Source of the DNA: a virus
Taxonomy: Duplodnaviria; Heunggongvirae; Uroviricota; Caudoviricetes
Virus record (IMG/VR): IMGVR_UViG_2657245439_000011
Span: 1 to 12,712 of that record
Length of the DNA stretch: 12,712 nucleotides
Direction: 5' to 3' (one strand)
The notes below the pieces were generated by a model, which ran no database searches, was not told the origin of the DNA, and saw nothing but the letters and a program-made list of their open reading frames with translations. This document shows positions 1-12,712 of this stretch, one piece after another. The translations under genes and the position numbers were made by a program. Each line of letters opens with the position of its first letter. Position 1 is the first letter of the stretch.

Positions 1-241
1 AATCAGAATGATAAAGATTCTCCAAAAAAATCTTCATGGTAACCGTCCCTCTCGAAGGATGTTTTTCAGTATCCGGCTAAAAGGGATGAGGCCATAAGAC
101 ATAACAATTACAGAAGGAGTAACTTTCATTTGTTCCATGTTAACCACTTTTTCAGGGGTCCTTTTATTAGATTATCCTGATTATAAACGAATAATCCATT
201 TACGGAATTTTTGTCTGTAAAATACTACTGTATTCAGGAGT

Positions 242-276
242 AAATGGACGGAGATGTATCATCGCCGTCCATTTTT
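242..276. terminator. Hairpin downstream of nlpC, possible bidirectional intrinsic terminator
   Basis: Stem 242-251 pairs with 265-274 (core atggacgg/ccgtccat), 13-nt loop, T-run on the plus side and A-rich on the other. Lies 8 nt downstream of the nlpC stop (284-286, minus strand). Confidence 0.45.
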
Positions 277-283
277 CGACATA

Positions 284-748
284 CTAGATTCGTCTCGCCT
301 GCCAGAAATTTTTCTGCCAATAAACATTATCGAGTGAGGAACGCATCACTCCCTTGCTGGTAGAGGCGTGGATAAATTGGTTGTTGGTATCATAAATACC
401 TACATGCAAACCATTTTGTCCGGAGCCCGTTTTGAAAAAGACCAGGTCACCAGGCAGCAACTCGTCTTTATCAATTTGCGTGCCGATAGAGGCTTGTTCT
501 TTGGTTTCTCGGGGCAGCTGCAAATCGAAACGATCGCGCATCGTCACAACCACAAACCCCGAACAGTCCACACCGCGCCGCGTCATGCCACCATAACGAT
601 ACGGCGTGCCATGCCAGCTCTGTAGCTGGTCGTTCAAACCGGCAATAACGGTAATCGAATCAGAAAGTCTGGCATTTGGCGGCGGTGCTTTATGGTGGCT
701 ACACCCGGCCAGAAACAGTGCTGTGATCAAAATAAGGCAGAAACGCAT
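284..748 (-). CDS. nlpC: NlpC/P60-family lipoprotein (cell-wall endopeptidase family)
   Basis: 154-aa ORF with ATG at 748. Signal peptide with lipobox LAGC, catalytic-Cys context DCSGFV and His context GLHVGIYD typical of NlpC/P60. Near-identical to my recollection of E. coli NlpC, and in the expected position next to btuD. Confidence 0.95.
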   Translation of the reverse strand: MRFCLILITALFLAGCSHHKAPPPNARLSDSITVIAGLNDQLQSWHGTPYRYGGMTRRGVDCSGFVVVTMRDRFDLQLPRETKEQASIGTQIDKDELLPGDLVFFKTGSGQNGLHVGIYDTNNQFIHASTSKGVMRSSLDNVYWQKNFWQARRI

Positions 749-825
749 TCCGTACGGTTCCTCTGTTTTTTATTCTTGCATTAATTTAGCGTCGTAATTA
801 CCCGATTTTCAAGATACTAATGAAA

Positions 826-1575
826 TCAGATGGTCGAAATCAGCATTCTGTGACCTTCGATATCCAGACGGCGAAAATTCATCCCATAGGCCTGCGCCAG
901 ATTTGGCGGCGTGAGCACCTCTTCCCTGCGTCCACTGGCCAGCATTTTTCCACCTTTTAGCAACCACGCCCGATGCGCATGACGCAATGTATGGTTGAGA
1001 TCGTGACTGCTCATCACAATCGCCAGTCCTTGCTGACACAGCGCGCTCAGAATTTTGTCTAATGCACTTTGTTGCGCAACATCAAGACTGTTCATAGGCT
1101 CATCAAGAAGTAGTAATTGGCCTGCGGGATTGGCTTGTGGTGTGATTTGCAGCACCACCGCAGCAAGACGTACGCGTTGCCATTCGCCGCCGGAAAGTTG
1201 ATTGGTGCTACGTCCGAGTTTGTCATCAAGAGCCAGCGCCCCTGCGACATCATTCAGTAGTTCGGTACGCGTTTTATCGTGCTGATGCAGTGTCAGGTAG
1301 TGCCAGACCGGCATTGCAAACGGCGGCGTCTGCTGTTGTGAAAGATAGGCGCGATGCAGCGCGAGTTTTGTTGCGGACCATGCTTCCAGTGGTTGCCCCG
1401 CGAACTGAATGCTTCCCTTACCGCTGGTCATTCCGGCCATTCGTGCAAGCAAGGTACTCTTACCCGCGCCGTTCGGCCCCACCAGGTGCAGGATCTCCCC
1501 AGCCCGAACCTCGCCAGAAAGCGGCCCCAGGCGGGTAGATTCCGCAACATCCTGTAACTGCATCACAATAGACAT
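826..1575 (-). CDS. btuD: Vitamin B12 ABC importer ATP-binding subunit
   Basis: 249 aa. Walker [13 protein letters not shown] signature LSGGEWQR, Walker B LLLLDEP. Start ATG shares one base with the btuE stop (TAATG), as in E. coli btuE-btuD. Confidence 0.97.
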
Positions 1576-2126
1576 TATTTTGCCAACGCCAGTTTAATGC
1601 TTTCCATCACAATGGGATCTTCCGGCGTCATATCCGGGGAAAAACGCTGGATGACCAATCCGTCCCTGCCAACTAAAAATTTCTCAAAATTCCATAAAAT
1701 ATCATCAGGGTACAGCGGTGCACGACCTTTGCTGACCATACGGGCATAGAATCCGCTCTCTTCCGGCGCGACTGCGGTCGGCGCTGCGGCAATCAATTTT
1801 TGATACAGCGGATGGCGTCCTTCGCCATTAACTTCAATCTTACTGAACATCGGGAACGTCACCCCCCATGTGGTGGTACAGTAAGTTTTAATCTCTTCAT
1901 CGCTGCCCGGTTCTTGTTCCAGAAACTGGTTGCACGGGAATCCCAGCACCACAAAACCACGATCGGCCCAGGCTTTCTGAATATTCTCCAACTGCTCATA
2001 TTGCGGCGTTAAGCCACACTTTGAGGCGACATTGACAATCAACAGCACATTACCGGCGTACTTCTCCAGCGTGGTCACTTCACCGTCGATATCTTTCACT
2101 ACGGTCGTCAGAATGGAATCTTGCAT
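1575..2126 (-). CDS. btuE: Glutathione peroxidase-family protein
   Basis: 183 aa. GPx motifs NVASKCG (peroxidatic Cys), [15 protein letters not shown]. Matches E. coli BtuE as recalled. Confidence 0.97.
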
Positions 2127-2188
2127 CGTTTCTCCTGGGTGTGGTCAGTAAAAATCTTAGCTTTTAATCATAGACCGTCTTTTTGCGG

Positions 2189-3169
2189 CTAACGTCCTGC
2201 TTTTAACAATAACCAGATAAACACCGGCGCACCCAACGTTGCGGTGACCACGCCAATAGGCAGCTCTGCGGCAGCTAATGCCAGGCGCGCTACAATATCG
2301 GCCAGCAGCAATGCGCTCGCCCCTGCCAGCGCGCAGCCGGGAAGTAATACGCGATGATCGGTTAAACCACACAGCCGGAGAATATGGGGGATCACCAGAC
2401 CAATAAAGCCGATAGCACCCGCCAGCGCCACACTGACGCCAACCATCCAGCCGGTCGCTGCCACCAACACATTGCGCCAGAACCACAGGGGTAAACCCAG
2501 TTGCCGCGCCGAGATCTCGCCAAGTGCTAACATATTCATTGGCCTGGACTGACAACAGATCCACAACAACACGGGGATCAATGCCAGCATCAGCCAGCTT
2601 TGCCGCCAGTCTACGCCGCCAAAACCGCCCATCATCCAGTACATCAGCTGACGTAAATCAACAGAGGTGGAAAAGTAGATAGCCCACGTCATTAGTGCGC
2701 TACAGATAATCCCTAATGCAACGCCAGCCAGCAATAACCGACTGGTCGAAAGATGACGACGGGCGAAACGTAAGAGTATTAAAGTGATGATAAGCGCGCC
2801 AGCAATCGCACACAGCCCCAGCGCCCAGTTGGGGAGTTGCCCTTGCCCAAGCAATACCGCGGCGATAAGCCCCACGCCTGCGCCATTAGAGACGCCAAGT
2901 AGTCCAGGTTCTGCCAGAGGATTTTCGAACAACGCCTGCATTACAGCGCCGGATATAGCCAGCGCCGCACCAACCAGCAATACAGCCAGCGTACGTGGCA
3001 GGCGAATTTGCCAGACGAACAGTTCGCCACGAGGAGTAAACCAGTCACCTGGCGAGATCCATTGTTCACCGGCGCAAAGGCTTAAGAGAAGCGCCAGCAG
3101 CATCAAAACTGACAGGCATAATAACCAGCGAATATTTTGTCGCTGTTGTTGGCGGGCAAGTGTCAGCAT
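2189..3169 (-). CDS. btuC: Vitamin B12 ABC importer permease
   Basis: 326 aa, highly hydrophobic polytopic protein, ATG at 3167-3169 (minus). Matches E. coli BtuC as recalled. Confidence 0.97.
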
Positions 3170-3232
3170 GGTATCCGTTCTGCTGAAGTGTCATGGCGTT
3201 GATTTTACGGTGACTCTTCGACAGTGAAAAGA

Positions 3233-3253
3233 AAAAAGGCCGCAGAGCGGCCA
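3233..3253 (-). terminator. Rho-independent terminator (minus-strand sense)
   Basis: Minus strand reads GGCCGC-tct-GCGGCC followed by TTTTTT (plus coordinates: stem 3239-3244 / 3248-3253, A-run 3233-3238). Sits between the element and the btuC start; may be the retained host terminator or the terminator of the int/orf131 transcript. Confidence 0.55.
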
Positions 3254-3358
3254 TAAACACAAACAAAAATCAATAAGTTAGATAATTATCAAAGACTTAC
3301 AGACACACAAAAACACAGCCAACCACAACAAATAACAGGGATGTGGTCACTTTGTGGA

Positions 3359-3754
3359 TCATTCGCTCCCCTCTTTTTCCTTATTTCGTTGAACGCCAAT
3401 TGCGACACACGTACTAAGCAAATCTTTACATTTCTCTACATCTTCAGACTTACGCAATTTGATGCTTTTTACAGACTGCGGGCTACTGTCCGTAGCACGA
3501 TACATCGTTATTTCAATATCATTTCGGTCTAAGAGTCCCATAATGGCTTTTGCAACCTCCACACCCTTCTTCGCGAAATCAAAGAACAGAGCAAGTTTAT
3601 ATGGATTTTCGACGGAAAAAACTTCAATTTTGCTAAAACCAACATCGTGTAGAGAAAAATATTGCTCAACCTCATCTCGAAGTTCTGGATCGCATACAAT
3701 GTCTATTCTCCAGTACTGACCTAAATGCAAATCGCTATTAACTGTTTTTTCCAC
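3359..3754 (-). CDS. Hypothetical protein, AT-rich accessory gene between int and the host junction
   Basis: ORF track gives 3359..3775 from TTG. I prefer the in-frame GTG at 3754-3752, preceded by AAGGAGG (minus strand, plus coordinates 3766-3760) at 5-nt spacing; this SD overlaps the int stop codon. Visibly more AT-rich than int. No recognisable motif and no TM segment. Confidence 0.55.
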   Translation of the reverse strand: MEKTVNSDLHLGQYWRIDIVCDPELRDEVEQYFSLHDVGFSKIEVFSVENPYKLALFFDFAKKGVEVAKAIMGLLDRNDIEITMYRATDSSPQSVKSIKLRKSEDVEKCKDLLSTCVAIGVQRNKEKEGSE

Positions 3755-3764
3755 AACATCCTCC

Positions 3765-4739
3765 TTACCCAGCAATAGGATTAAATCTCACCGCATCCTG
3801 CAAGTAATCCGGCGCAAGATGGGCATAAATCATCGTTGTCTGAATCTTTGCGTGCCCCAGAATTTTCTGGAGCGTCAGAATATTGCCGCCGTTCATCATG
3901 AAATGACTGGCGAAGGTGTGGCGCAGCGCATGAACAGCCTGGCCGTCAGGAACATCAGGTGCGACCGTTTTGATGACATCGCGAACCAATGGATAATCCA
4001 GCGTCGGAAACACCAGTTTCCCGCCCCGTTTTTTGATCTTTTCAAACAGGCTTTCAGAAATAGGAACGGTACGGTTTTTGCTGTTCTTCGTTTTTGAAAA
4101 AGTGATTCGACAATGAAGAACACGGCGCTGCTCCAGTGCCGCTACCTCGCCCCATCGCGCCCCGGTCGACAGAAGGATTTCGACAGCCAGCCGTTCATCG
4201 GGATTTTCAGCCAGTGCATCCAGCAACTGAACACATTCAGACTTACTCAGATATCCCATTTCGCGCTCGTTAACCTTCATTCCTTTAAGGCCTTGAACGG
4301 GGTTATCGTTAAGAAAATGGCCGGATGAGATGAGTGCGGTAAACATCGCGCTTAACGCCCCAATCTCTCGATTAATGGTGCTGGGCTGTATCCCCTGCTC
4401 TATCCTGGACACACGTAGCTCGGTGAGCATCGTTGTATTAAGTTTATGCACACACGGGTCATCCATTGCCTCACTCAAGCGCAGCAATTTAAGGCGCGTG
4501 TTATGCCCTGACTTCATTAGCTGGCCGTGGTATTTCCACCACAAGTCAATAAGCACCGACAGCGGACGGCGATCAATGGAGTTTCCTTTCCACTCATTGT
4601 TATGCTGTTGCGCCAGCACCCACCGCTCATATAAAACTGCATCCGATTTCGTTTTAAATTTTTTGCGAATGCGTTTGCCTTTACGCCCCTCAGGGCGCAT
4701 GTCAAGAAGATACCCTCCCGGAATTGATTTTATGCTCAT
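3765..4739 (-). CDS. int: Tyrosine recombinase, P2-type phage integrase
   Basis: Box I arginine TGARWGE, box II HALRHTFASHF, nucleophile Tyr in TTMIYAHL. N-terminus MSIKSIPGGY...GRKGKRIRKKF resembles P2 Int (recalled MAIKKL...GRNGKRIRRKF). The ORF track start (4889) is rejected in favour of ATG 4739-4737, which matches the family N-terminus and does not overlap the upstream gene. Confidence 0.93.
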   Translation of the reverse strand: MSIKSIPGGYLLDMRPEGRKGKRIRKKFKTKSDAVLYERWVLAQQHNNEWKGNSIDRRPLSVLIDLWWKYHGQLMKSGHNTRLKLLRLSEAMDDPCVHKLNTTMLTELRVSRIEQGIQPSTINREIGALSAMFTALISSGHFLNDNPVQGLKGMKVNEREMGYLSKSECVQLLDALAENPDERLAVEILLSTGARWGEVAALEQRRVLHCRITFSKTKNSKNRTVPISESLFEKIKKRGGKLVFPTLDYPLVRDVIKTVAPDVPDGQAVHALRHTFASHFMMNGGNILTLQKILGHAKIQTTMIYAHLAPDYLQDAVRFNPIAG

Positions 4740-4788
4740 TCGTGAAACCCCAGCGTTACAAGACCACCATGCCCCCAGCGTTCCATGA

Positions 4789-5100
4789 TTAACCGGGCTG
4801 TGTACCAGTCTTGCGGGATTTTTGAGAAGACGATGTGTTTTCTGGCCCATCAGGGGAGAGAGAGGGACTGATCTGCCCAGCAGCCTCATTTGTTTTTCCC
4901 GTCATAAGCCATATAGTGTATTTTTCGAAATCCTTAGAATTAATTACGCGATCAACAACGCTTAAACCAACCTCTCTTTTACCGCTCTCATAATTCTTTA
5001 TAGTTCCGAGATTTATCCCAGTAACATCTGCAAACTCAGCTTGAGTTAACCCTTCACTTTTCCGTATCTCTTTCAGTTTTTTTTCGTACCCACTTGACAT
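4789..5100 (-). CDS. XRE-family helix-turn-helix repressor, P2 C-like immunity repressor
   Basis: 103 aa, ATG 5100-5098 with GGAGA SD. HTH LTQAEFADVTGINLGTIKNYESGKR. C-terminal KYTIWLMTG...GQISPSL resembles P2 C as recalled. Placed upstream of int on the same strand and divergent from the early operon, as in P2. Confidence 0.85.
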   Translation of the reverse strand: MSSGYEKKLKEIRKSEGLTQAEFADVTGINLGTIKNYESGKREVGLSVVDRVINSKDFEKYTIWLMTGKTNEAAGQISPSLSPDGPENTSSSQKSRKTGTQPG

Positions 5101-5110
5101 GGTGGTCTCC

Positions 5111-5155
5111 AGACGACTAAATTAACCCTAAAAGTCGCCTAGAGACGACTTTTAG
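5111..5155. promoter_or_regulatory. Operator-like repeat cluster in the repressor / early-operon switch region
   Basis: Direct repeat AGACGACT at 5111-5118 and 5143-5150. Inverted repeat CTAAAAGTCG (5128-5137) / CGACTTTTAG (5146-5155) with 8-bp spacer. All within the 91-bp gap between the divergent starts at 5100 and 5192. Confidence 0.4.
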
Positions 5156-5191
5156 CAACAAATAACCACAGACTGAACAGGTTATCACATC

Positions 5192-5470
5192 ATGACAAAG
5201 CTCTTGAACACATACGAGCAAGCGGATTTTGAGCGTTTGGCGGCGTTCTACCCATACCGCGATGAGCATGGATTACCGGTACTCGAAGAAAGCCTGAAAG
5301 ATTACGCGAAGCGTACCAATCAAACTGTTAATGCAGTGAAAAGGCAGGCTGACAGAGCAGCCCTTCCCATCAACCAAGAAGAAAAAAACTCAAAACGTAC
5401 AGTAAATCTCTTCGCAATTTTCCTGAAAACCATCAGAAACGCAGAGAAATATGTGCAGATGACAAAATAA
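5192..5470 (+). CDS. Small early protein, possibly a Cox/Apl-like regulator
   Basis: 92 aa, first gene of the early operon, divergent from the repressor (the position of P2 cox / 186 apl). Segment YAKRTNQTVNAVKRQADRAALP loosely resembles the P2 Cox HTH region as recalled. Weak SD. Confidence 0.5.
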   Translation: MTKLLNTYEQADFERLAAFYPYRDEHGLPVLEESLKDYAKRTNQTVNAVKRQADRAALPINQEEKNSKRTVNLFAIFLKTIRNAEKYVQMTK

Positions 5471-5484
5471 CGAGGTGTCATTTT

Positions 5485-5823
5485 ATGCTGAAGCAACGCC
5501 GTAATTTTCGCACCGAAACGGAACGCCAAGCTAACCGTTTCGCTACCAGCGCATCACGCAGCAACATCCGCTACAGCCTGAGCGAGACGCACGCAACGCC
5601 AGATGGCCATACAGTAAAACAAATTGGCGAACACACCTGGCTGATTGAAAAAGCTGGAATCGTGGTTCACAGATGCCAACGCAACCCATTTACCGGAAAC
5701 CGCATTTTTGCTCTGAGCAACGGCGACACTCAGTTTGGACAGGATTTCACATTGTACGAAGCACTTCGCACGGTTGATCGTCTGCTTCGCGGGCAAAGTT
5801 TTATTAAACAGACTGATTTATAA
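5485..5823 (+). CDS. Hypothetical early protein (112 aa)
   Basis: ATG 5485 preceded by GAGGTG SD; begins 14 nt after the previous stop. No recognisable motif. Confidence 0.55.
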   Translation: MLKQRRNFRTETERQANRFATSASRSNIRYSLSETHATPDGHTVKQIGEHTWLIEKAGIVVHRCQRNPFTGNRIFALSNGDTQFGQDFTLYEALRTVDRLLRGQSFIKQTDL

Positions 5824-5833
5824 CAGGTGCGTT

Positions 5834-6112
5834 ATGACCAAAGAGCATGCACAAGGTGTATTTATCCGTTTTATTGATTTTCGCGGTGAACTGTTATTGC
5901 GCGCATCAGCTATTGATGGAGTTGTCCCATCAGAAAAAAATGCAGCTACTTACGTTTATCTGAACGGCACGCGCCTGACCGTAGAACTTCCGTACCAGAC
6001 TGTACACGGAATCATTAGCGAAGCTGAAAAAGCACGTAAGATTAATGGCGATGAACCCTATATCGAAATTATTTGTATGGATTCAGAAGCTGAAATTCAG
6101 AAAGCAGATTAA
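5834..6112 (+). CDS. Hypothetical early protein (92 aa)
   Basis: The ORF track starts at 5735 and overlaps the previous gene; the ATG at 5834 with AGGTG SD, 10 nt after the upstream stop, is the more plausible start. Confidence 0.55.
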   Translation: MTKEHAQGVFIRFIDFRGELLLRASAIDGVVPSEKNAATYVYLNGTRLTVELPYQTVHGIISEAEKARKINGDEPYIEIICMDSEAEIQKAD

Positions 6113-6123
6113 AGGGCGTTGCG

Positions 6124-6366
6124 ATGGGCAAAGAATATAAAACTCTCATTAACAAAGCACTTGAGCGTTTTTATTTTCGCTTAAGTGCATCAGGTGCTCA
6201 TGCTGAACGTGCAGCCCGTGACTCATTGACCAGGGCAATCCGGAGTCTGTATGACGTGGCTTTTTACGCTGATGATCTGGATGCACTTAACGAACTTTCC
6301 GAGCTGATCTGTGCCGCAGAATGCGGGGAGCATATTGAACCGTATAAGCTGGGGAATATTGCATGA
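6124..6366 (+). CDS. Hypothetical early protein (80 aa)
   Basis: ATG 6124; tightly packed in the operon; its stop overlaps the next start as ATGA. Confidence 0.5.
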   Translation: MGKEYKTLINKALERFYFRLSASGAHAERAARDSLTRAIRSLYDVAFYADDLDALNELSELICAAECGEHIEPYKLGNIA

Positions 6367-6476
6367 GTATATTTATCTCATGGCTTGTCCTGATTATTTC
6401 GGTGGTCTGCGCCATTGGGATTATGCAAATTATTCATTCAGTAAAAAAGATTGAACGCATTTTCACTGGCGAATAA
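6363..6476 (+). CDS. Small hydrophobic peptide (37 aa), predicted single-pass membrane peptide
   Basis: Not in the ORF track. ATG 6363 overlaps the stop of the upstream ORF (ATGA). Translation MSIFISWLVLIISVVCAIGIMQIIHSVKKIERIFTGE: a hydrophobic stretch of about 20 residues followed by a basic tail. Confidence 0.35.
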   Translation: MSIFISWLVLIISVVCAIGIMQIIHSVKKIERIFTGE

Positions 6477-6563
6477 CAGCGCAAATAAAAACCCTAGGTT
6501 AAATAAGAAAATGTAAAAACAATCCGCATTCGCGGAGGTATTCGCACACGCCCAGGAGGCGTA

Positions 6564-6767
6564 ATGGCAATTAAGCATTTTCCTGTCGTTCGTTTCACTT
6601 CCAGAGGACGTGAATACGAAGTCGACGAACGCCTGATTACCACAATCGACAAACACCGCTCAGAAAAGGATGCACACCACATCTATCTCACTGACGGTAC
6701 TTACTTCTGCGCCACTAATGTGGCGCGGGTGAATCTTATCCGACAGGTACAGGATCCTCGCAAATGA
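6564..6767 (+). CDS. Hypothetical early protein (67 aa)
   Basis: Strong RBS: AGGAGG at 6554-6559, 4 nt before ATG 6564. Stop overlaps the next start as ATGA. Confidence 0.55.
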   Translation: MAIKHFPVVRFTSRGREYEVDERLITTIDKHRSEKDAHHIYLTDGTYFCATNVARVNLIRQVQDPRK

Positions 6768-6982
6768 GCAGGAGAAGAATCACTCGCAGACATCACCGCA
6801 CACACCTGAATTCCTCAGCAACGCTAAAGGCACTTATTCAAAGCGAGATCGGTGATTTCTTCGCGGGAGTTGGCTCACTAGGTGAACCAGAAACACCAGA
6901 AGCGATGCAGCGTGAGCTCATGATACGCATAGATAACACTTTTGATTTCTTCTACAGCATGCACGGAATTAAACAGAAATGA
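6764..6982 (+). CDS. Hypothetical early protein (72 aa), basic N-terminus
   Basis: ATG 6764 overlaps the upstream TGA (translational coupling). Arg/His-rich N-terminus RRRITRRHHRTH. Confidence 0.45.
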   Translation: MSRRRITRRHHRTHLNSSATLKALIQSEIGDFFAGVGSLGEPETPEAMQRELMIRIDNTFDFFYSMHGIKQK

Positions 6983-7090
6983 ACCTCAAGCCAGCAATAA
7001 CTACTCGTAGAACGCCAATTTCTGTAACCGACCGCTTCTGAGTTTTTTGGCAGGAAGCCTTCGCACATCCTTAGTAGAGAGAATTGCAGC

Positions 7091-7480
7091 ATGATTGACG
7101 CTCATGACTTCACAAGATGGGTGCGCACACAGGACACCCGTCTGGCTCCCATTCTTCGGGGATTATTTGATCTCTACATTCGTGGTCGTGACAACAGAGC
7201 ACGCACCACAAAACCGGAGAATGTGGATACCCTTTATTTCACAGTAGACGACTGCTACCGCGTGGACTTCACACCACACGGACTGGCGTTGCACTGCCTG
7301 ACACCGCACGGCGAATCACTGCTGGCGTATTACGACTCCCCGGCCTCCGTATTTGCGGCAATGCTGGCGCATCGCACTGCTGGCGGGTGTGTCTCGCTGA
7401 GTGAATACACCGCTGAATTTAACCGCCTTTCCACCATCTTCTTGCAGGAGTGGCAGCGCGTGACGGGATACCAGCCATGA
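7091..7480 (+). CDS. Hypothetical early protein (129 aa) immediately upstream of the replication gene
   Basis: ATG 7091; stop TGA 7478-7480 overlaps the ATG (7477) of the replication initiator. Confidence 0.55.
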   Translation: MIDAHDFTRWVRTQDTRLAPILRGLFDLYIRGRDNRARTTKPENVDTLYFTVDDCYRVDFTPHGLALHCLTPHGESLLAYYDSPASVFAAMLAHRTAGGCVSLSEYTAEFNRLSTIFLQEWQRVTGYQP

Positions 7481-10296
7481 GTGAGTTTGCATGGAGCTGG
7501 AATGAACCACGACCAGCCATTGATCCGGCCAGATTTACGGAGCACAGGCAGGAAACTGAAACCGACCTGCAACGCGCCATCCGTTACTACCTTGAGGCAG
7601 ACAAAAAGGCCCTGGAAGAACAGGAAGCGAAGGAGGAAGCCTTTTTCGCACAATCCACCGTGGGTAAAAAACTCATGGCATCCCTTGAGGAAGCCGGACA
7701 GCGTGAAAAGCTGGCACAAAGCATCATCAGCAAGCGTCAGGCAACAGAACAAGACCCGGTGGCCCGTGCTTTTGCCACACTGAAAGTGCTTCCCGTTTAT
7801 CTGCGTGAACCTCTGAGCCGCCACCTCTCTTTCCTGCGCAAAAAACAGGAATCCGATCGTCAGAAAGGCAAAAAGAGCTGGCAGGCTGAACGCTACGCGC
7901 GCGGAAACCTGCGCAAAATATTCGAACGCCTGGAACGCACCGATCACCGCTGGCTGACACCGGGTTATCGCTCCCTTACCGGACGCGAACGCCTGGACGA
8001 TTTGCTTTACCTGCCGCAGCTCAACAAACACCAGATACAGACGCTGGCCACCATGACGGCGGCGATGTTCAGCAGCACCTTCGAAAAACTCTGCGATAGC
8101 TTTGGCGCGACTGATGGCGAGCTGACCATGGATGTAACGCTGAAGGCGTATCAGATGCTGGCCCGCATGGCGTTACACCTGCACGCCATGCCTCCACATT
8201 ATGACGCACTGACAACAGACAAAGACCGGAGGAACGAACCGGACACGGAGCTGCTGCCGGGCGCAATCCTTCGCCTGACCTGTGCGGAATGGTGGAAACG
8301 CAAACTGTGGCTGTTACGTTGCGAGTGGCGGGAAGAACAACTCCGCGCCGCCTGTCTGGTTTCCAGAAAAACATCGCCCTATCTGAGTCAGGACGCATTA
8401 AGCGAGTTTCGCGCGCAGCGCGAGAAAACACGCGATTTCCTGAAAAGTTTCATGCTGGAAAACGAAGACGGGTTCACGATTGATCTCGAGACAGTGTATT
8501 ACGCGGGAGTAAGTAACCCGGTTCACCGTAAGGCAGAAATGATGGCCACCATGAAGGGGCTGGAACTTCTGGCCGAAGCCCGTGGCGACAGAGCGGTGTT
8601 TCTGACTGTCACCTGCCCGTCAAAATACCACGCCACAACAGAGAACGGTCATCCGAATCCCAAATGGAACGGGGCCACCATGCGCGACTCCAGCGATTAC
8701 CTGGTTAACACGTTTTTTGCGGCAGTCCGCAAAAAACTGAACCGCGACGGTCTGCGCTGGTATGGCATCCGCACGGTGGAGCCTCACCATGACGGCACCG
8801 TGCACTGGCATATGATGGTCTTTGCTCATCCGGAAGAAATCGACAGCATCGTGGCCATCACCCGCGATATTGCCATTCAGGAAGACCGCCACGAGCTGGG
8901 CAATGATATTACTCCGCGCTTTAAGGTGGAGTATGTCGACGGCTCAAAAGGCACACCAACCAGCTATATCGCGACCTACATCGGAAAAAACCTGGACAGC
9001 CGCGCCGTGGATGGCATCGACCCGAAAACGGGCAAGCCACGCGTTGACCACGAAACCGGAAAATCAATGGCCGAGAGCGTGGAACGCGCCATCGGCTGGG
9101 CGCGCCTTCACCGGGTTCGCCAGTTCCAGTTCTTTGGTATCCCCTCCCGTCAGGTGTGGCGTGAACTGCGCCGCCTTGCCAGCCAGATGGCACGCAACCC
9201 GGAAGGCCCGCAACGGCTGAAGGATGACGCAATGGATGCGGTACTCGCTGCCGCTGATGCCGGATGTTTTGCCACCTACATTGAAAAACAGGGTGGCGTG
9301 CTTGTTCCACGCAAGGACTACCTGATTCGCACCGCCTACGACCTCGCAGATGAGCTGAACGATTACGGCGAACAGAGCGTACAGATTTACGGGATCTGGT
9401 CACCACTCATCGGGGAATCCTCCCGTGTGTGCACGCATCCGGATAACTGGAAGCTGGTAAGACGTAAACCAGAACCGGAAGACAACGCCCACGAAAATGG
9501 TTTTGACCTTCAGGGCGGCCCTGCCGCCTCTTGGACTCGTGGCAATAACTGTCCCCGTGTACAGGAAACGGACAACAACGGGACAGAACAGCCGGAAGAA
9601 CGGCCAGCACCGTGGCCGCAGCTCCCTGACGGCGTTGAAGTGAACGAATGGGTGCGCTCACTGAAACGGCACGAACGCCGGGCGCTGATGCGTTCGCTTC
9701 GTGACAAACAGGCAAAAAACAGCAGTGATGAAATGCAGAGCTGGACACAGAGCCGCAAACAGCAGCGGCCTTTGCCTGATAACCACGAATTACTCGCTAA
9801 AGAATGGCGGGAGTCTGCTGAATCTCTCGGCCTGCATATCGGTGAACAGCAGATGCAGCACCTGTTACGGGGCGGCAGCCTGTACGTTGACGGCAGCATC
9901 ATTGCACCGCAGGGATATGAAATTGTACGTAAACCGGATACCCGCCCGGACAGCCGAATCACGCAGCTCTGGCAACGCCTGAGCCGTAACCACGGCGTAA
10001 GCAGCACGGAGATCCGCCATAACCCGGTCGCCAGCTATCTGGAACAACTAGGGGCATCAGACCCTGAAGCCGCCGCACGCCTGGCATCCACACTTCAGCA
10101 AGACCAGAACACCATGAAAACACCCGTTACCGTACTTTCTGACATGCTGCGCGCCATCCGCGACGCAGAGCACGAACAGAGAATCAGTGAAACAACTGAA
10201 CGCGCCCGCCGCAAAGCAGACCTGCTGCGGGGTGGCCTGACCAGTGGAAACAAAAAACAGACAAAAACGGGATTTAAAAATCCTGTAACCGATTAA
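7477..10296 (+). CDS. Rolling-circle replication initiator (HUH endonuclease, phage P2 gene A / phiX174 gene A superfamily)
   Basis: HUH motif in GTVHWHMMVF; catalytic tyrosine pair in YIATYIGK (Y-x-x-x-Y-x-x-K). Start taken as ATG 7477 (ATGA overlap with the upstream stop) rather than the track's GTG 7450; 939 aa. Long low-complexity, charged C-terminal region after the catalytic core. Confidence 0.9.
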   Translation: MSEFAWSWNEPRPAIDPARFTEHRQETETDLQRAIRYYLEADKKALEEQEAKEEAFFAQSTVGKKLMASLEEAGQREKLAQSIISKRQATEQDPVARAFATLKVLPVYLREPLSRHLSFLRKKQESDRQKGKKSWQAERYARGNLRKIFERLERTDHRWLTPGYRSLTGRERLDDLLYLPQLNKHQIQTLATMTAAMFSSTFEKLCDSFGATDGELTMDVTLKAYQMLARMALHLHAMPPHYDALTTDKDRRNEPDTELLPGAILRLTCAEWWKRKLWLLRCEWREEQLRAACLVSRKTSPYLSQDALSEFRAQREKTRDFLKSFMLENEDGFTIDLETVYYAGVSNPVHRKAEMMATMKGLELLAEARGDRAVFLTVTCPSKYHATTENGHPNPKWNGATMRDSSDYLVNTFFAAVRKKLNRDGLRWYGIRTVEPHHDGTVHWHMMVFAHPEEIDSIVAITRDIAIQEDRHELGNDITPRFKVEYVDGSKGTPTSYIATYIGKNLDSRAVDGIDPKTGKPRVDHETGKSMAESVERAIGWARLHRVRQFQFFGIPSRQVWRELRRLASQMARNPEGPQRLKDDAMDAVLAAADAGCFATYIEKQGGVLVPRKDYLIRTAYDLADELNDYGEQSVQIYGIWSPLIGESSRVCTHPDNWKLVRRKPEPEDNAHENGFDLQGGPAASWTRGNNCPRVQETDNNGTEQPEERPAPWPQLPDGVEVNEWVRSLKRHERRALMRSLRDKQAKNSSDEMQSWTQSRKQQRPLPDNHELLAKEWRESAESLGLHIGEQQMQHLLRGGSLYVDGSIIAPQGYEIVRKPDTRPDSRITQLWQRLSRNHGVSSTEIRHNPVASYLEQLGASDPEAAARLASTLQQDQNTMKTPVTVLSDMLRAIRDAEHEQRISETTERARRKADLLRGGLTSGNKKQTKTGFKNPVTD

Positions 10297-10320
10297 TTAA
10301 TCAACATAAGGAAAAGCGAC

Positions 10321-11280
10321 ATGAAAATTTGTATCGACGACGGCTCCACCAACATCAAGCTGGCATGGACTGAGAACGGCGAACACCGCAACGCCATCAG
10401 CCCGAACAGCTTCAAGTCGGAATGGTCTGCGCCGTTCGGTGGCACGCAGCCCGCGAACTACATGCTTGATGGCGTGCGCTATGGTTTTGATCCGGTCAGC
10501 GATCGCTTTGTCCAGACGACCGACACGCAATACCAGTACAGCGATGTGAATGTCATTGCCATTCATCATGCGCTGGTCAAATCAGGCATCACGCCACAGG
10601 AGGTGGATGTGGTTGTCACCCTGCCACTGAGCGAGTATTTCGACACAAACGCACAGCCGGACATGGCCAACATCAACCGCAAAAAAGCGAACGTTATGCG
10701 CCCGGTGGAGTACCAAAACGGCGAGGCATTCACTATCCGTAACGTGCGGGTTATGCCTGAATCCATTCCGGCTGGCTTTAAAGCACTGGCTGACATGAGT
10801 CCGTTTGAATCCCTGCTGATTGTGGATTTGGGCGGAACCACGCTGGATGTGGCAAAGGTTCAGGGGCAACTGGCAGGTATCAGCCAGGTGTTTTGCGATC
10901 CACACGTAGGCGTTTCTCTGATGGCCGATGCCGTGCTGTCGGTGATGGCCACCAACGGTATGCGCACCAGTCACCACATCGCCAATACCATTATCGAACA
11001 TCGCCACGATGAAGCCTGGCTGCGCCAGCACATCCACAATGACGCGCATTACGCCAGCCTGATGGCAGTTATTCGTGAAAAGGAGGAAACACTGAAACAA
11101 CGCGTGATCCGCGCGCTGGCGGTTTTTTCGGGTTACGGGCGGGTGATGGTTGTCGGTGGAGGGGCGGAGATTGTGGCACCCGCTATCCGCGAAGCCTGCG
11201 GAGTTAATGCGACTTTCATCGCGGACGGGGTGCCACAGTTTGCTCTGGTTAATGGGCTGTACGCAATGGACAAGGAGTAA
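10321..11280 (+). CDS. parM: Actin-like segregation ATPase, ParM/StbA family
   Basis: 319 aa. N-terminus MKICIDDGSTNIKLAW (R1 ParM recalled as MLVFIDDGSTNIKLQW). Phosphate-2 motif IVDLGGTTLDV and adenosine motif VMVVGGGAEI. Similarity appears to run the full length. SD AAGGAA upstream. Confidence 0.9.
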   Translation: MKICIDDGSTNIKLAWTENGEHRNAISPNSFKSEWSAPFGGTQPANYMLDGVRYGFDPVSDRFVQTTDTQYQYSDVNVIAIHHALVKSGITPQEVDVVVTLPLSEYFDTNAQPDMANINRKKANVMRPVEYQNGEAFTIRNVRVMPESIPAGFKALADMSPFESLLIVDLGGTTLDVAKVQGQLAGISQVFCDPHVGVSLMADAVLSVMATNGMRTSHHIANTIIEHRHDEAWLRQHIHNDAHYASLMAVIREKEETLKQRVIRALAVFSGYGRVMVVGGGAEIVAPAIREACGVNATFIADGVPQFALVNGLYAMDKE

Positions 11281-11284
11281 ACCA

Positions 11285-11596
11285 ATGACGACTCCAACCA
11301 GACGGATAAGTTTCTATCTGAAGCCCACCGCCGTCAAGAACGAAGGAGAAGCATGCGCCTGGCTGGACAGCCTTACACCAGAAGCCCGCAAAAGCGGCCA
11401 ACGCGTGGCTTTTCTGGCCGGGCTGGCACTTCTGAAAATGAATCCGGCAGAGGCTTACCGACTGGCTGCATGGGCTGATGATGAGGTGTTATCAGTGACA
11501 CAAACCAAGACAGAACGCCCCGCGTCACAGCCAGTATCAACCGCACAGATAACCAGTCAGATGGCCGGAAATATCCGGGCGTTATTTCCTGAATAA
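11285..11596 (+). CDS. parR: ParR/StbB-like centromere-binding adaptor
   Basis: 103 aa from ATG 11285 (GGAG 10 nt upstream), directly after parM. Resembles R1 ParR as recalled: ISFYLKP vs IAFKLNP, LDSLTPEARKSGQRVAFLAGLAL vs LDSIPQGERSRLNRAALTAGLAL, C-terminal NIRALFPE vs ILRSLFPKE. Confidence 0.75.
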   Translation: MTTPTRRISFYLKPTAVKNEGEACAWLDSLTPEARKSGQRVAFLAGLALLKMNPAEAYRLAAWADDEVLSVTQTKTERPASQPVSTAQITSQMAGNIRALFPE

Positions 11597-11599
11597 CAT

Positions 11600-11670
11600 C
11601 AGGGCGTATTCGCCCTGCCACCAATCCCATAACATAAAGAACGGGGTGCAAATCACTATACACCCCGTTC
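11600..11670. other. Two GC-rich hairpins immediately downstream of parR
   Basis: Hairpin 1: CAGGGCG-tatt-CGCCCTG (11600-11617). Hairpin 2: GAACGGGGTG-12 nt loop-CACCCCGTTC (11639-11670). Neither is followed by a clear plus-strand U-tract; hairpin 2 has a modest T-rich tail on the minus strand. Confidence 0.45.
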
Positions 11671-11881
11671 CAATACAAACCATCAGAAGATCTACACATC
11701 TTTCTCAAATGGCCAAGTAATCGAGCTGGTTCAGGAATAAGCATGCTGCCAACACAAGTGAAGGAGATAAAACTGTAGAACTGATCAATCGTTGGAAACA
11801 AGTATTGACAGTATGTTCGAGTAACCCAACTGGATAGATTTTATGCTGATTATCCATACAGTAAAAAAGTAAGGATACTCT

Positions 11882-11910
11882 TTGAATTACGCCAGAAAGA
11901 GTGGTAACAT
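11882..11910 (+). promoter_or_regulatory. Candidate sigma70-type promoter for the downstream AAA ATPase gene
   Basis: TTGAAT (11882-11887), 17-nt spacer, TAACAT (11905-11910); about 65 nt upstream of ATG 11975. Hexamer match only. Confidence 0.3.
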
Positions 11911-11974
11911 TAGTCAATGATTTTCATTAATGTAGTTACCAGCTTACACAAGCTGATGTTTTATTGGGGGTTTT

Positions 11975-12712
11975 ATGGTAAACGTGAGGGAGGATGAACT
12001 TTTCAAACTCATCGAGCAAGGCATCAAAGGCAACGCAAATGCATTTACACTCCTATGCAGAAAGATGATTAACAACATCCGTAAAAATGATGAGGCTTTA
12101 GCTTCTAAGCTGGCTTCGTTAGTTGCTGAGGGAACAGTATTACGTGGGGCATCTAGTAAGGCTCCTATGCCTGTGGATGGAGACTCCAGACGAAACCTTT
12201 TGCAGGAAACATCTGTCAACGCAATTGTTGAAGAACCTGTATGGAATACGGATATCTCAAAGAAGCTGGAGTCAATTGTTAACGAAAGAGAGAATGCGGT
12301 TTCTTTGTTCAAAGCTGGTCTTGAACCTGTGAAGACGGTTTTACTTTCTGGCCCGCCAGGCGTAGGCAAAACAATGTCCGCACATTGGCTTGCTGCAAAG
12401 TTAAATTTACCTCTTTTAACATTGGATCTCTCATCTGTAATGAGTTCTCTTTTGGGAAAAACAGGTAATAATATTAAATCCGTTATGGATTATGCCAAAG
12501 AGAAACCATGTGTCCTTTTGCTTGATGAATTTGATGCTGTTGCAAAAAGACGTGATGATGACAGGGACGTTGGAGAATTAAAACGTTTAGTTACTGTACT
12601 CCTACAGACCATAGATGAGTGGCCAGCGACCTCGCTTCTTGTTGCTGCGACTAATCACCCTGATATCTTAGATCCGGCTGTTTGGCGTCGATTTGAGCAC
12701 ATCCTTAAATTT
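11975..12712 (+). CDS. Classical AAA ATPase, 3' end truncated by the window (first 246 codons seen)
   Basis: Absent from the ORF track because it has no stop inside the window. In-frame stop at 11954-11956, first ATG at 11975 with a GGGGG run 4 nt upstream. Walker A GPPGVGKT, Walker B VLLLDEFD, sensor-1 AATN, second-region-of-homology HPDILDPAVWRRF (arginine finger). About 120-aa N-terminal domain of unknown type. Gene and upstream spacer are visibly more AT-rich than the rep/parMR block. Confidence 0.8.
   Translation, partial: MVNVREDELFKLIEQGIKGNANAFTLLCRKMINNIRKNDEALASKLASLVAEGTVLRGASSKAPMPVDGDSRRNLLQETSVNAIVEEPVWNTDISKKLESIVNERENAVSLFKAGLEPVKTVLLSGPPGVGKTMSAHWLAAKLNLPLLTLDLSSVMSSLLGKTGNNIKSVMDYAKEKPCVLLLDEFDAVAKRRDDDRDVGELKRLVTVLLQTIDEWPATSLLVAATNHPDILDPAVWRRFEHILKF

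Follow-up and report, generated by a model that had tools for sequence, protein, structure and literature searches.

Why does an integrated phage carry a plasmid-type partition system next to its replication gene, and where is the centromere on which such a system would act? The question is raised by a stretch of 12,712 nucleotides (IMG/VR record IMGVR_UViG_2657245439_000011, positions 1 to 12,712), referred to here as the window, in which genes for homologues of the segregation ATPase ParM and its adaptor ParR lie directly behind the gpA-type replication gene (rep) of an integrated P2-family prophage. This much an initial annotation, made from the sequence alone, had recognized correctly; it had also reported that there was no iteron array and no upstream centromere. 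Comparison with related prophages reveals a conserved, locus-specific pair of palindromic repeats at the position of parC, of which the window, as a rare single-copy variant, has kept one hybrid copy that the annotation had overlooked. The explanation that we favor, with moderate confidence, is that the locus is a bona fide type II ParM/ParR partition cassette, fixed in the replication module of P88-like (Xuanwuvirus) temperate phages, which acts through these repeats on extrachromosomal circles.

ParM and ParR Form an R1-type Partition Pair

ParM matches the Pfam families StbA_N (2.7e-82) and ParM C-terminal domain (6.3e-69), and its residues 2-316 align with the crystal structures of R1 ParM (Protein Data Bank codes 1MWK and 1MWM; E 8.6e-93). 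It is 50% identical to R1 ParM over the full length and 52% identical to the ParM of an IncL/M plasmid. When the conserved residues were mapped on the alignment with R1 ParM, the nucleotide-binding motifs of the actin fold were all found to be intact, namely phosphate-1 (DDGSTNIK), MPESIPAG, phosphate-2 (DLGGTTLD), and adenosine (VGGGAE). Judged by these motifs, ParM is a complete actin-fold ATPase that retains every feature of a polymerizing segregation ATPase, and it is predicted to form filaments. The gene is under strong purifying selection, with ratios of nonsynonymous to synonymous substitution (dN/dS) of 0.034-0.146, including 0.048 at a dS of 0.60 in the comparison with a Hafnia relative.

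The parR open reading frame starts at the ATG at position 11285, four bases past the parM stop, and not at 11150; the order of the two genes and the 4-nucleotide gap are the same as in R1/R100. ParR belongs to Pfam family PF10784 (Plasmid_stab_B, 6.7e-24), and its residues 6-61 are 34% identical to R100 StbB/ParR. The best match of the ParR family profile among solved structures is pB171 ParR (2JD3), a weak match (E 0.017) that spans the DNA-binding domain. In an alignment of 13 ParR alleles the N-terminal strand RRISFYLKP is invariant and the domain is conserved to about residue 65, the linker beyond this point varies freely, and the C-terminal NIRALFPE is again conserved. The tail AGNIRALFPE resembles KKNAMKLIN of R100 ParR and KNVQHLFPDDD of IncL/M ParR; Gayathri and co-workers are said to have found in 2012 that the ParR C terminus binds ParM in R1. 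The protein thus described appears to consist of an StbB N-terminal DNA-binding domain of the ribbon-helix-helix type (residues 1-65) and a conserved tail like the one with which R1 ParR contacts ParM. Purifying selection on parR is more relaxed than on parM (dN/dS 0.23-0.34) because of the variable linker. That the two genes are a ParM/ParR pair of the R1 type, as first proposed, is virtually certain.

Relatives of ParR are restricted to Escherichia, Salmonella, Citrobacter, Cronobacter, and Hafnia, the most divergent matches being degraded or noisy copies. A tblastn search with ParR found no match on true plasmids, and BLASTP found none to IncL/M ParR. A copy that is 90% identical occurs on a 226-kb contig (NZ_JBQPOM010000071.1) of an assembly labeled "Vagococcus sp." (Firmicutes); it is most likely an enterobacterial contamination of that assembly.

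One Repeat Period Is Missing from the rep-parM Junction

The rep stop codon (10294-10296) is separated from the parM ATG by 24 nucleotides in the window, as the initial annotation had stated. In relatives this gap is 76 bp (Escherichia coli E2348/69 and phage P88) or 113 bp (the Hafnia relative), the 80 informative IMG/VR relatives also falling within 76-113 bp, and an alignment of the junctions shows that the window lacks 73 bp that are present in E2348/69 and P88. The relatives contain two 38-nucleotide direct repeats, CAAAAAACAGACAAAAACGGGATTCACAAATCCCGTAA and CACAAAACAGGCGAAAACGGGATTTAAAAATCCTGTAA, which are 84% identical, lie exactly 73 bp apart, and straddle the rep stop. Each repeat ends in a palindrome of 16-20 bp, GGGATT-N4-AATCC(C/T). 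Both palindromes are present in all 80 IMG/VR relatives for which upstream sequence is available, at -127 and -54 from the parM ATG, and in the whole 35.8-kb genome of P88 the palindrome is found at the two junction copies only.

The one repeat that remains in the window is a hybrid. When aligned to the relatives, its left half is of the copy-1 type and its right half of the copy-2 type, and in a BLAST comparison the same 38 nucleotides match both positions 12052-12089 and 12125-12162 of the E2348/69 locus (L001). The junction of the 73-bp deletion falls within AAAACGGGATT (10264-10274), and the deletion, read from this alignment, is the loss of one repeat period by recombination or slippage within that sequence. 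A palindrome search of the window returned one good copy at 10269-10284 (one mismatch) and a weaker match at 7159-7174 (two mismatches); the same search with a 3-nucleotide spacer returned none, the actual spacer being 4 nucleotides. The 20-bp palindrome in the hybrid repeat is a candidate site for a dimer-of-dimers of the ParR ribbon-helix-helix domain.

Because exactly one repeat period was deleted, the Rep reading frame continues through the hybrid repeat, into which the last nine rep codons fall. The C terminus of Rep reads TGFKNPVTD before the stop in the window and TGFTNPVNEQKTRRDI in E2348/69, so that only a few tail residues are altered. The last ~130 residues of Rep (residues ~807-939, window positions ~9895-10296) are confined to the P88 clade; other gpA proteins in the phage collection are <60% identical and can be aligned only to about residue 806 of 939. 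This extension ends within the repeat region, so that the candidate centromere encodes its tail.

The single-copy junction is rare and was found in 5 of the 1084 complete E. coli genomes that have this junction. Three other single-copy prophages were inspected. Their cargo differs, and their loop alleles give different crossover points, which indicates that the deletion arose at least twice. In C11 and TK3046 rep, parM, and parR are intact, and in 2013C-3181, a decaying prophage, there is an internal parM-parR deletion and rep is frameshifted. The junction had been described as having no terminator and no room for a promoter and centromere. On the plus strand from rep to parM, a consensus scan indeed found neither a sigma-70-like promoter nor a terminator, whether in the window or in E2348/69. 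In contrast, it is this strain, and not the system, that lacks room for a centromere, because relatives have a two-copy junction of which 73 bp were lost here.

The core between the repeats (positions 12096-12124 of L001), which is deleted in the window, is a GC-rich inverted repeat (GCGCGC...GCGCGC) that contains the rep stop and is followed by a T6 run on the minus strand. In Hafnia both copies have changed from C to T in parallel (ACGTGC...GCGTGC), which makes the core more like a direct repeat.

Conserved Repeats as a Candidate Centromere

At the parM dS of 0.60 that separates the E. coli and Hafnia loci, neutral DNA should be heavily diverged. The upstream rep coding DNA is 50% identical between the two, the core between the repeats is 38% identical, and the palindrome loops differ. 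Against this background the A-tract blocks of the repeats are 84-93% identical and three of the four palindrome arms 86-100%, the right arm of palindrome 2 matching at 5 of 7 positions. The rep stop is situated inside palindrome 1 in Hafnia and in the central core in E. coli, and coding constraint can therefore not explain the conservation of the repeats. In our judgment the repeats are quite probably functional cis elements. Their assignment as a ParR-binding centromere is putative, and we consider it moderately likely. The 73-bp spacing of the repeats (about seven helical turns) and the 10-bp spacing of the half-sites would suit ribbon-helix-helix dimers, and the invariant strand RRISFYLKP of ParR parallels the invariant half-sites.

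Two further ideas about the repeats were considered and set aside. The resemblance of their phased A-tracts to R1 iterons is visual only and has no statistical support, and it is not used as evidence here. The origin of replication of P2 and 186 lies inside gene A; a P2-type origin in the repeats is unlikely, given that single-copy variants exist in prophages with an intact rep.

A Cassette Fixed in the P88-like Replication Module

The element in the window is a P88-like prophage of the genus Xuanwuvirus in the Peduoviridae (P2 family). Its closest records are the E. coli E2348/69 prophage, which occupies the same site, and the phages P88, P884B11, and phiSM, with 93-99.8% nucleotide identity over the parMR region; the identity to the three induced phages is 93-97%. 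The gene order int-C / cox...rep-parM-parR is found in the E2348/69 and P88 relatives.

In complete E. coli genomes the rep-parM-parR block is present, and annotated, in 1308 of 5426 (about one-quarter). The labels given to the two genes in the closest records are "plasmid segregation protein ParM" and "plasmid partitioning/stability family protein," and PHROGs contains them as partition-protein families. This rep type, at 80% identity or more, occurs in 14 phage records, each of which also has parM; elsewhere among the phage records a ParM is found only in the P1-like plasmid prophage D6. The inspected relatives of ParR all have the order rep-parM-parR-cargo, the two most divergent being degraded copies. 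The constant company of parM and this rep type argues that the cassette is a core part of the replication module of the clade and not cargo. The suggestion that the pair is an orphan is not supported for the family as a whole, in view of this association and of the selection on parM.

With no promoter or terminator found between rep and parM, and from the gene order, parMR would belong to the same operon as rep, and the simplest reading is that both genes are read through with rep from the early lytic promoter. By analogy with P2 and 186 biology, and from the gene order, the operon would be under the control of the C repressor. The region that corresponds in position to the R1 promoter is the central core, which is the poorly conserved part of the junction.

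Comparison with Known Partition Systems

The plasmid system ParMRC of R1/R100 (StbA/StbB/parC) shares with the phage cassette the full-length similarity of ParM with all of its nucleotide-binding motifs, the StbB domain of ParR (34% identity over the N-terminal 56 residues) with a similar tail, and the presence of cis repeats directly upstream of parM. The arrangement of the cis site differs. The iteron organization of R1 parC was reportedly worked out by Dam and Gerdes in 1994. In R1, two sets of five 11-bp direct iterons surround an autoregulated promoter of the system itself; in the P88-like phages there are two 38-nucleotide palindromic repeats (one in the window) and no promoter was found by the scan of the junction. 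In addition, the phage site overlaps the end of a replication gene, and its host replicon is an integrating phage.

The closest functional parallel would be SrpMRC of the SXT/R391 elements, a type II partition system whose element is integrated as a rule and replicates as a rolling circle once excised. SrpMRC is expressed only on activation and stabilizes the excised form (Carraro et al. 2015, PMC4489591). It lies in an activation-dependent operon and has no centromere promoter, a likeness that in the P88-like phages is deduced from the genes. Its centromere consists of four short repeats, both direct and inverted, in the 5' region of the gene for ParM, as compared with two repeats and four half-sites here. 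Unlike the P88-like ParR, which is a clear StbB protein, SrpR has no recognizable homology to ParR, and the host of SrpMRC is an integrative and conjugative element rather than a tailed phage.

AlpAC with its site alpS would be the second parallel. In this system the integrated Corynebacterium glutamicum prophage CGP3 carries genes for an actin-like protein and a DNA-binding adaptor, which are made on induction, and the adaptor binds repeats upstream of the operon. Efficient replication of CGP3 depends on AlpAC/alpS, as does a normal copy number of the phage DNA once the prophage is induced (Donovan et al. 2015, PMC4446434). AlpC is of a distant actin-like family, the adaptor gene comes first, and CGP3 is a cryptic prophage of a Gram-positive host, whereas the P88-like proteins are close relatives of enterobacterial plasmid ParM and ParR in a fully functional P2-family phage. 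The StbA-type system of D6 has a ParM homologue that is 48% identical; D6 is a 91-kb plasmid prophage in which partition is needed for lysogenic maintenance, whereas P88-like phages integrate.

Explanations for the Cassette

Several observations speak against a centromere in the repeats and the reading built on it. R1 parC has ten iterons, against which two repeats with four half-sites are a much smaller number, and no significant similarity to R100 or IncL/M parC was found, local alignment scores being within the shuffled range. The AlphaFold2 model of the ParR monomer, made from a 13-sequence alignment, is poor (predicted local distance difference test score, pLDDT, 56.6). The ParR family is too narrow, and its divergent members too degraded, for a test of covariation between protein and site to be possible. 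The promoter scan was a simple consensus search, which would miss weak or activator-dependent promoters. Each repeat is also terminator-like on the minus strand (a hairpin with a T-run), and the plus-strand RNA is predicted to pair palindromes 1 and 2 around the rep stop (-30.6 kcal/mol, z score -5.3), so that roles at the RNA level or as an insulator are possible.

These last features lead to an alternative in which the repeats are structural or transcriptional elements, either leftward tandem terminators or insulators or an mRNA clamp that tunes rep and parM, and ParR binds elsewhere or nowhere. The T-runs on the minus strand follow both palindromes and the central GC hairpin (the scan lists palindrome 1; the others were read from the sequence), and it is the stems of the repeats that are conserved while the loops vary. 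On the other hand, no obvious leftward transcript crosses parMR, and downstream of parR there are already two hairpins that resemble terminators. Common variants, such as GGGACT in palindrome 1 of about one-third of the loci and AATCCTGT in palindrome 2, disrupt pairing on one strand or the other, which mildly favors a protein site over a hairpin. Moreover, the position directly 5' of parM and the uniqueness within the genome match those of type II centromeres. We hold a purely structural role to be unlikely, although it is the most probable of the alternatives. In this particular prophage one repeat and the native C terminus of Rep are lost, which could also be a first step of decay that leaves its cassette crippled and effectively an orphan, and both the rarity of the single-copy state and the ruin of parMR and rep in 2013C-3181 would agree with this. 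Since rep, parM, and parR are intact in the window as well as in C11 and TK3046, one palindrome is still present, and only a few Rep residues differ, we find decay improbable. A segregating low-copy episome served by ParMR, in the manner of a phage-plasmid, had been suggested at the outset together with a search for circular forms. One such form was found in PLSDB (NZ_CP148288.1, pZ1323PEC0009-2), a complete circular P88-like genome of 34,461 bp with int, rep, parMR, and all structural genes, deposited as a non-mobilizable E. coli plasmid. It may represent an episome or DNA that was replicating upon induction; spontaneous induction would be enough to explain it. Of the 1456 places of the block in complete E. 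coli genomes, plasmid records account for only 2 and chromosomes for 1454, which tells against a stable phage-plasmid lifestyle. The phage encodes an integrase, btuC adjoins the integrated copy in the window, and rep and parMR lie downstream of the C-repressor/Cox switch, so that replication should be off in a repressed prophage if P2 and 186 are a guide. A segregating episome of this kind is very unlikely. Least probable of all is that the filaments serve something other than the movement of phage DNA, for instance ParR/parC incompatibility with, or exclusion of, related phages or plasmids. The cassette does adjoin a variable defense hotspot, but neither ParM nor ParR matches a defense family in PADLOC, the cassette is invariant across the clade, unlike the cargo, and ParM retains all features of a polymerizing segregation ATPase.

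According to the partition reading that we prefer, the cis site in the family would be the two 38-nucleotide repeats that straddle the rep stop; in the window, recombination between them would have removed one period and left a single hybrid site and the 24-bp gap. ParM and ParR would be made together with Rep at the time when the phage genome is an extrachromosomal circle replicating by the rolling-circle mode, after infection or induction. By binding the repeats, ParR would link the circles to filaments of ParM, by which they would be pushed apart or positioned. The logic would be that of SrpMRC and AlpAC rather than that of stable plasmid maintenance. With a single site, the cis element is probably weakened in the window prophage. 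That the cassette acts on a transient extrachromosomal form is, in our estimate, an even bet, and the likeliest of the readings of its use. More tentatively, P88-like phages could separate or position the monomer circles of rolling-circle replication by an R1-type actin spindle, with a minimal centromere of two palindromes in the 3' end of rep.

If this spindle reading is true, P88-like phages would provide the first demonstration of a ParMRC that works for a tailed, integrating phage of Gram-negative bacteria, and natural one-site deletion variants such as the window would be ready-made cis mutants. If the repeats are a centromere, P88-like phages would offer a tractable E. coli model of why a phage that integrates and replicates as a rolling circle should need to position its DNA actively, and of the minimal size of a type II centromere; the idea that emerged from SrpMRC and AlpAC, for integrative and conjugative elements and a cryptic prophage of actinobacteria, would come to include a functional phage that is widespread. 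For annotation, a "plasmid segregation" label in a chromosome is not evidence of a plasmid, and deletions between short repeats can erase a cis site and leave the genes intact. The genes have already been annotated in P88-like prophages and left unstudied: the paper on P88 does not mention the cassette, a full-text literature search found no functional study of it, and the phiSM paper lists it merely among "fitness" genes (PMC6456863).

Downstream Hairpins, Cargo, and Layout of the Window

The two hairpins downstream of parR had been noted as the only structured DNA nearby and as a possible relocated centromere. Both are real (together -30.6 kcal/mol minimum free energy, z score -5.5), but relocation of the centromere to them is unsupported. 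Most relatives keep hairpin 1 with different loops, and the copies in Hafnia and some of those in E. coli have extended stems that co-vary. This hairpin is probably an end-of-operon or insulator hairpin, and it may be a 3' mRNA-stabilizing or bidirectional insulator structure; no U-tract follows it on the plus strand. Only 8 of the 67 relatives contain hairpin 2, at or before which homology to other phages stops. This second hairpin is part of the variable cargo, with IetAS, and not of the parMR module.

Between parR and the portal gene there is a variable cargo slot, the contents of which differ in every inspected relative. In the window the gene for IetA, an AAA ATPase, follows parR on the plus strand (11975-12712) and is cut by the window end. 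The E2348/69 locus (L001 13849-17132) has IetA and then the S8 peptidase IetS, which together are the anti-phage defense system IetAS (PADLOC 3.6e-89 and 6.6e-41). A sigma-70-like promoter on the minus strand (TTTACT-16-TAAAAT, 11865-11838) lies upstream of IetA and divergent from it, pointing leftward to the hairpins and parR.

The features of the window are collected in Table 1. Pfam matches in the window comprise Phage_GPA, Int_N, Phage_integrase, and HTH_3; a scan of the window against Rfam gave no family match. The start of rep is ambiguous (GTG at 7450 or ATG at 7477), and RefSeq labels the counterpart in E2348/69 as a replication endonuclease. The E2348/69 prophage includes structural genes, and the window stops before them.

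Table 1. Coordinates of the features at the rep-parM-parR locus and in its surroundings (window positions unless stated otherwise)
Feature	Position	Strand	Basis or remark
nlpC, btuD, btuE, btuC	left part of window		E. coli chromosome
P2-family prophage	begins ~3360
Tyrosine integrase	3765-4889	-
C-type helix-turn-helix (HTH) repressor	4789-5100	-
Rightward early operon			ends with gpA-type rep
rep, gpA-type rolling-circle replication endonuclease	7477..10296	+	Pfam Phage_GPA 2.8e-130
Single hybrid 38-nucleotide repeat	10251..10288		within rep 3' end; remnant of candidate parC
20-bp imperfect palindrome, ACGGGATT-TAAA-AATCCTGT	10267..10286		half-sites 10 bp center to center
Shine-Dalgarno sequence of parM, AAGGA	10308..10312	+	read from sequence; invariant in alignment of relatives
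parM, actin-like segregation ATPase, 319 residues	10321..11280	+	Pfam, Protein Data Bank alignment
parR (StbB family) adaptor, 103 residues	11285..11596	+	Pfam PF10784
Hairpin 1, CAGGGCG-TATT-CGCCCTG	11600..11617		directly past parR stop
Hairpin 2, 10-bp perfect arms	11639..11670		terminator-like on minus strand
Two-copy repeat region of E2348/69	1873697-1873807 (E2348/69, NC_011601.1)

The prophage in the window is a mosaic relative to that of E2348/69. There is no match at 4911-5158, at the junction of the immunity region, nor at 6767-7798, which covers ~1 kb of early genes. The remaining early region is 90% identical, rep is 97% identical, and the parMR-IetA block is 99.8% identical. An open reading frame of 138 residues on the minus strand (3359-3775), situated between btuC and the integrase gene, is annotated as hypothetical in E2348/69 and has no match in PADLOC; it could be a moron carried at the end of the prophage.

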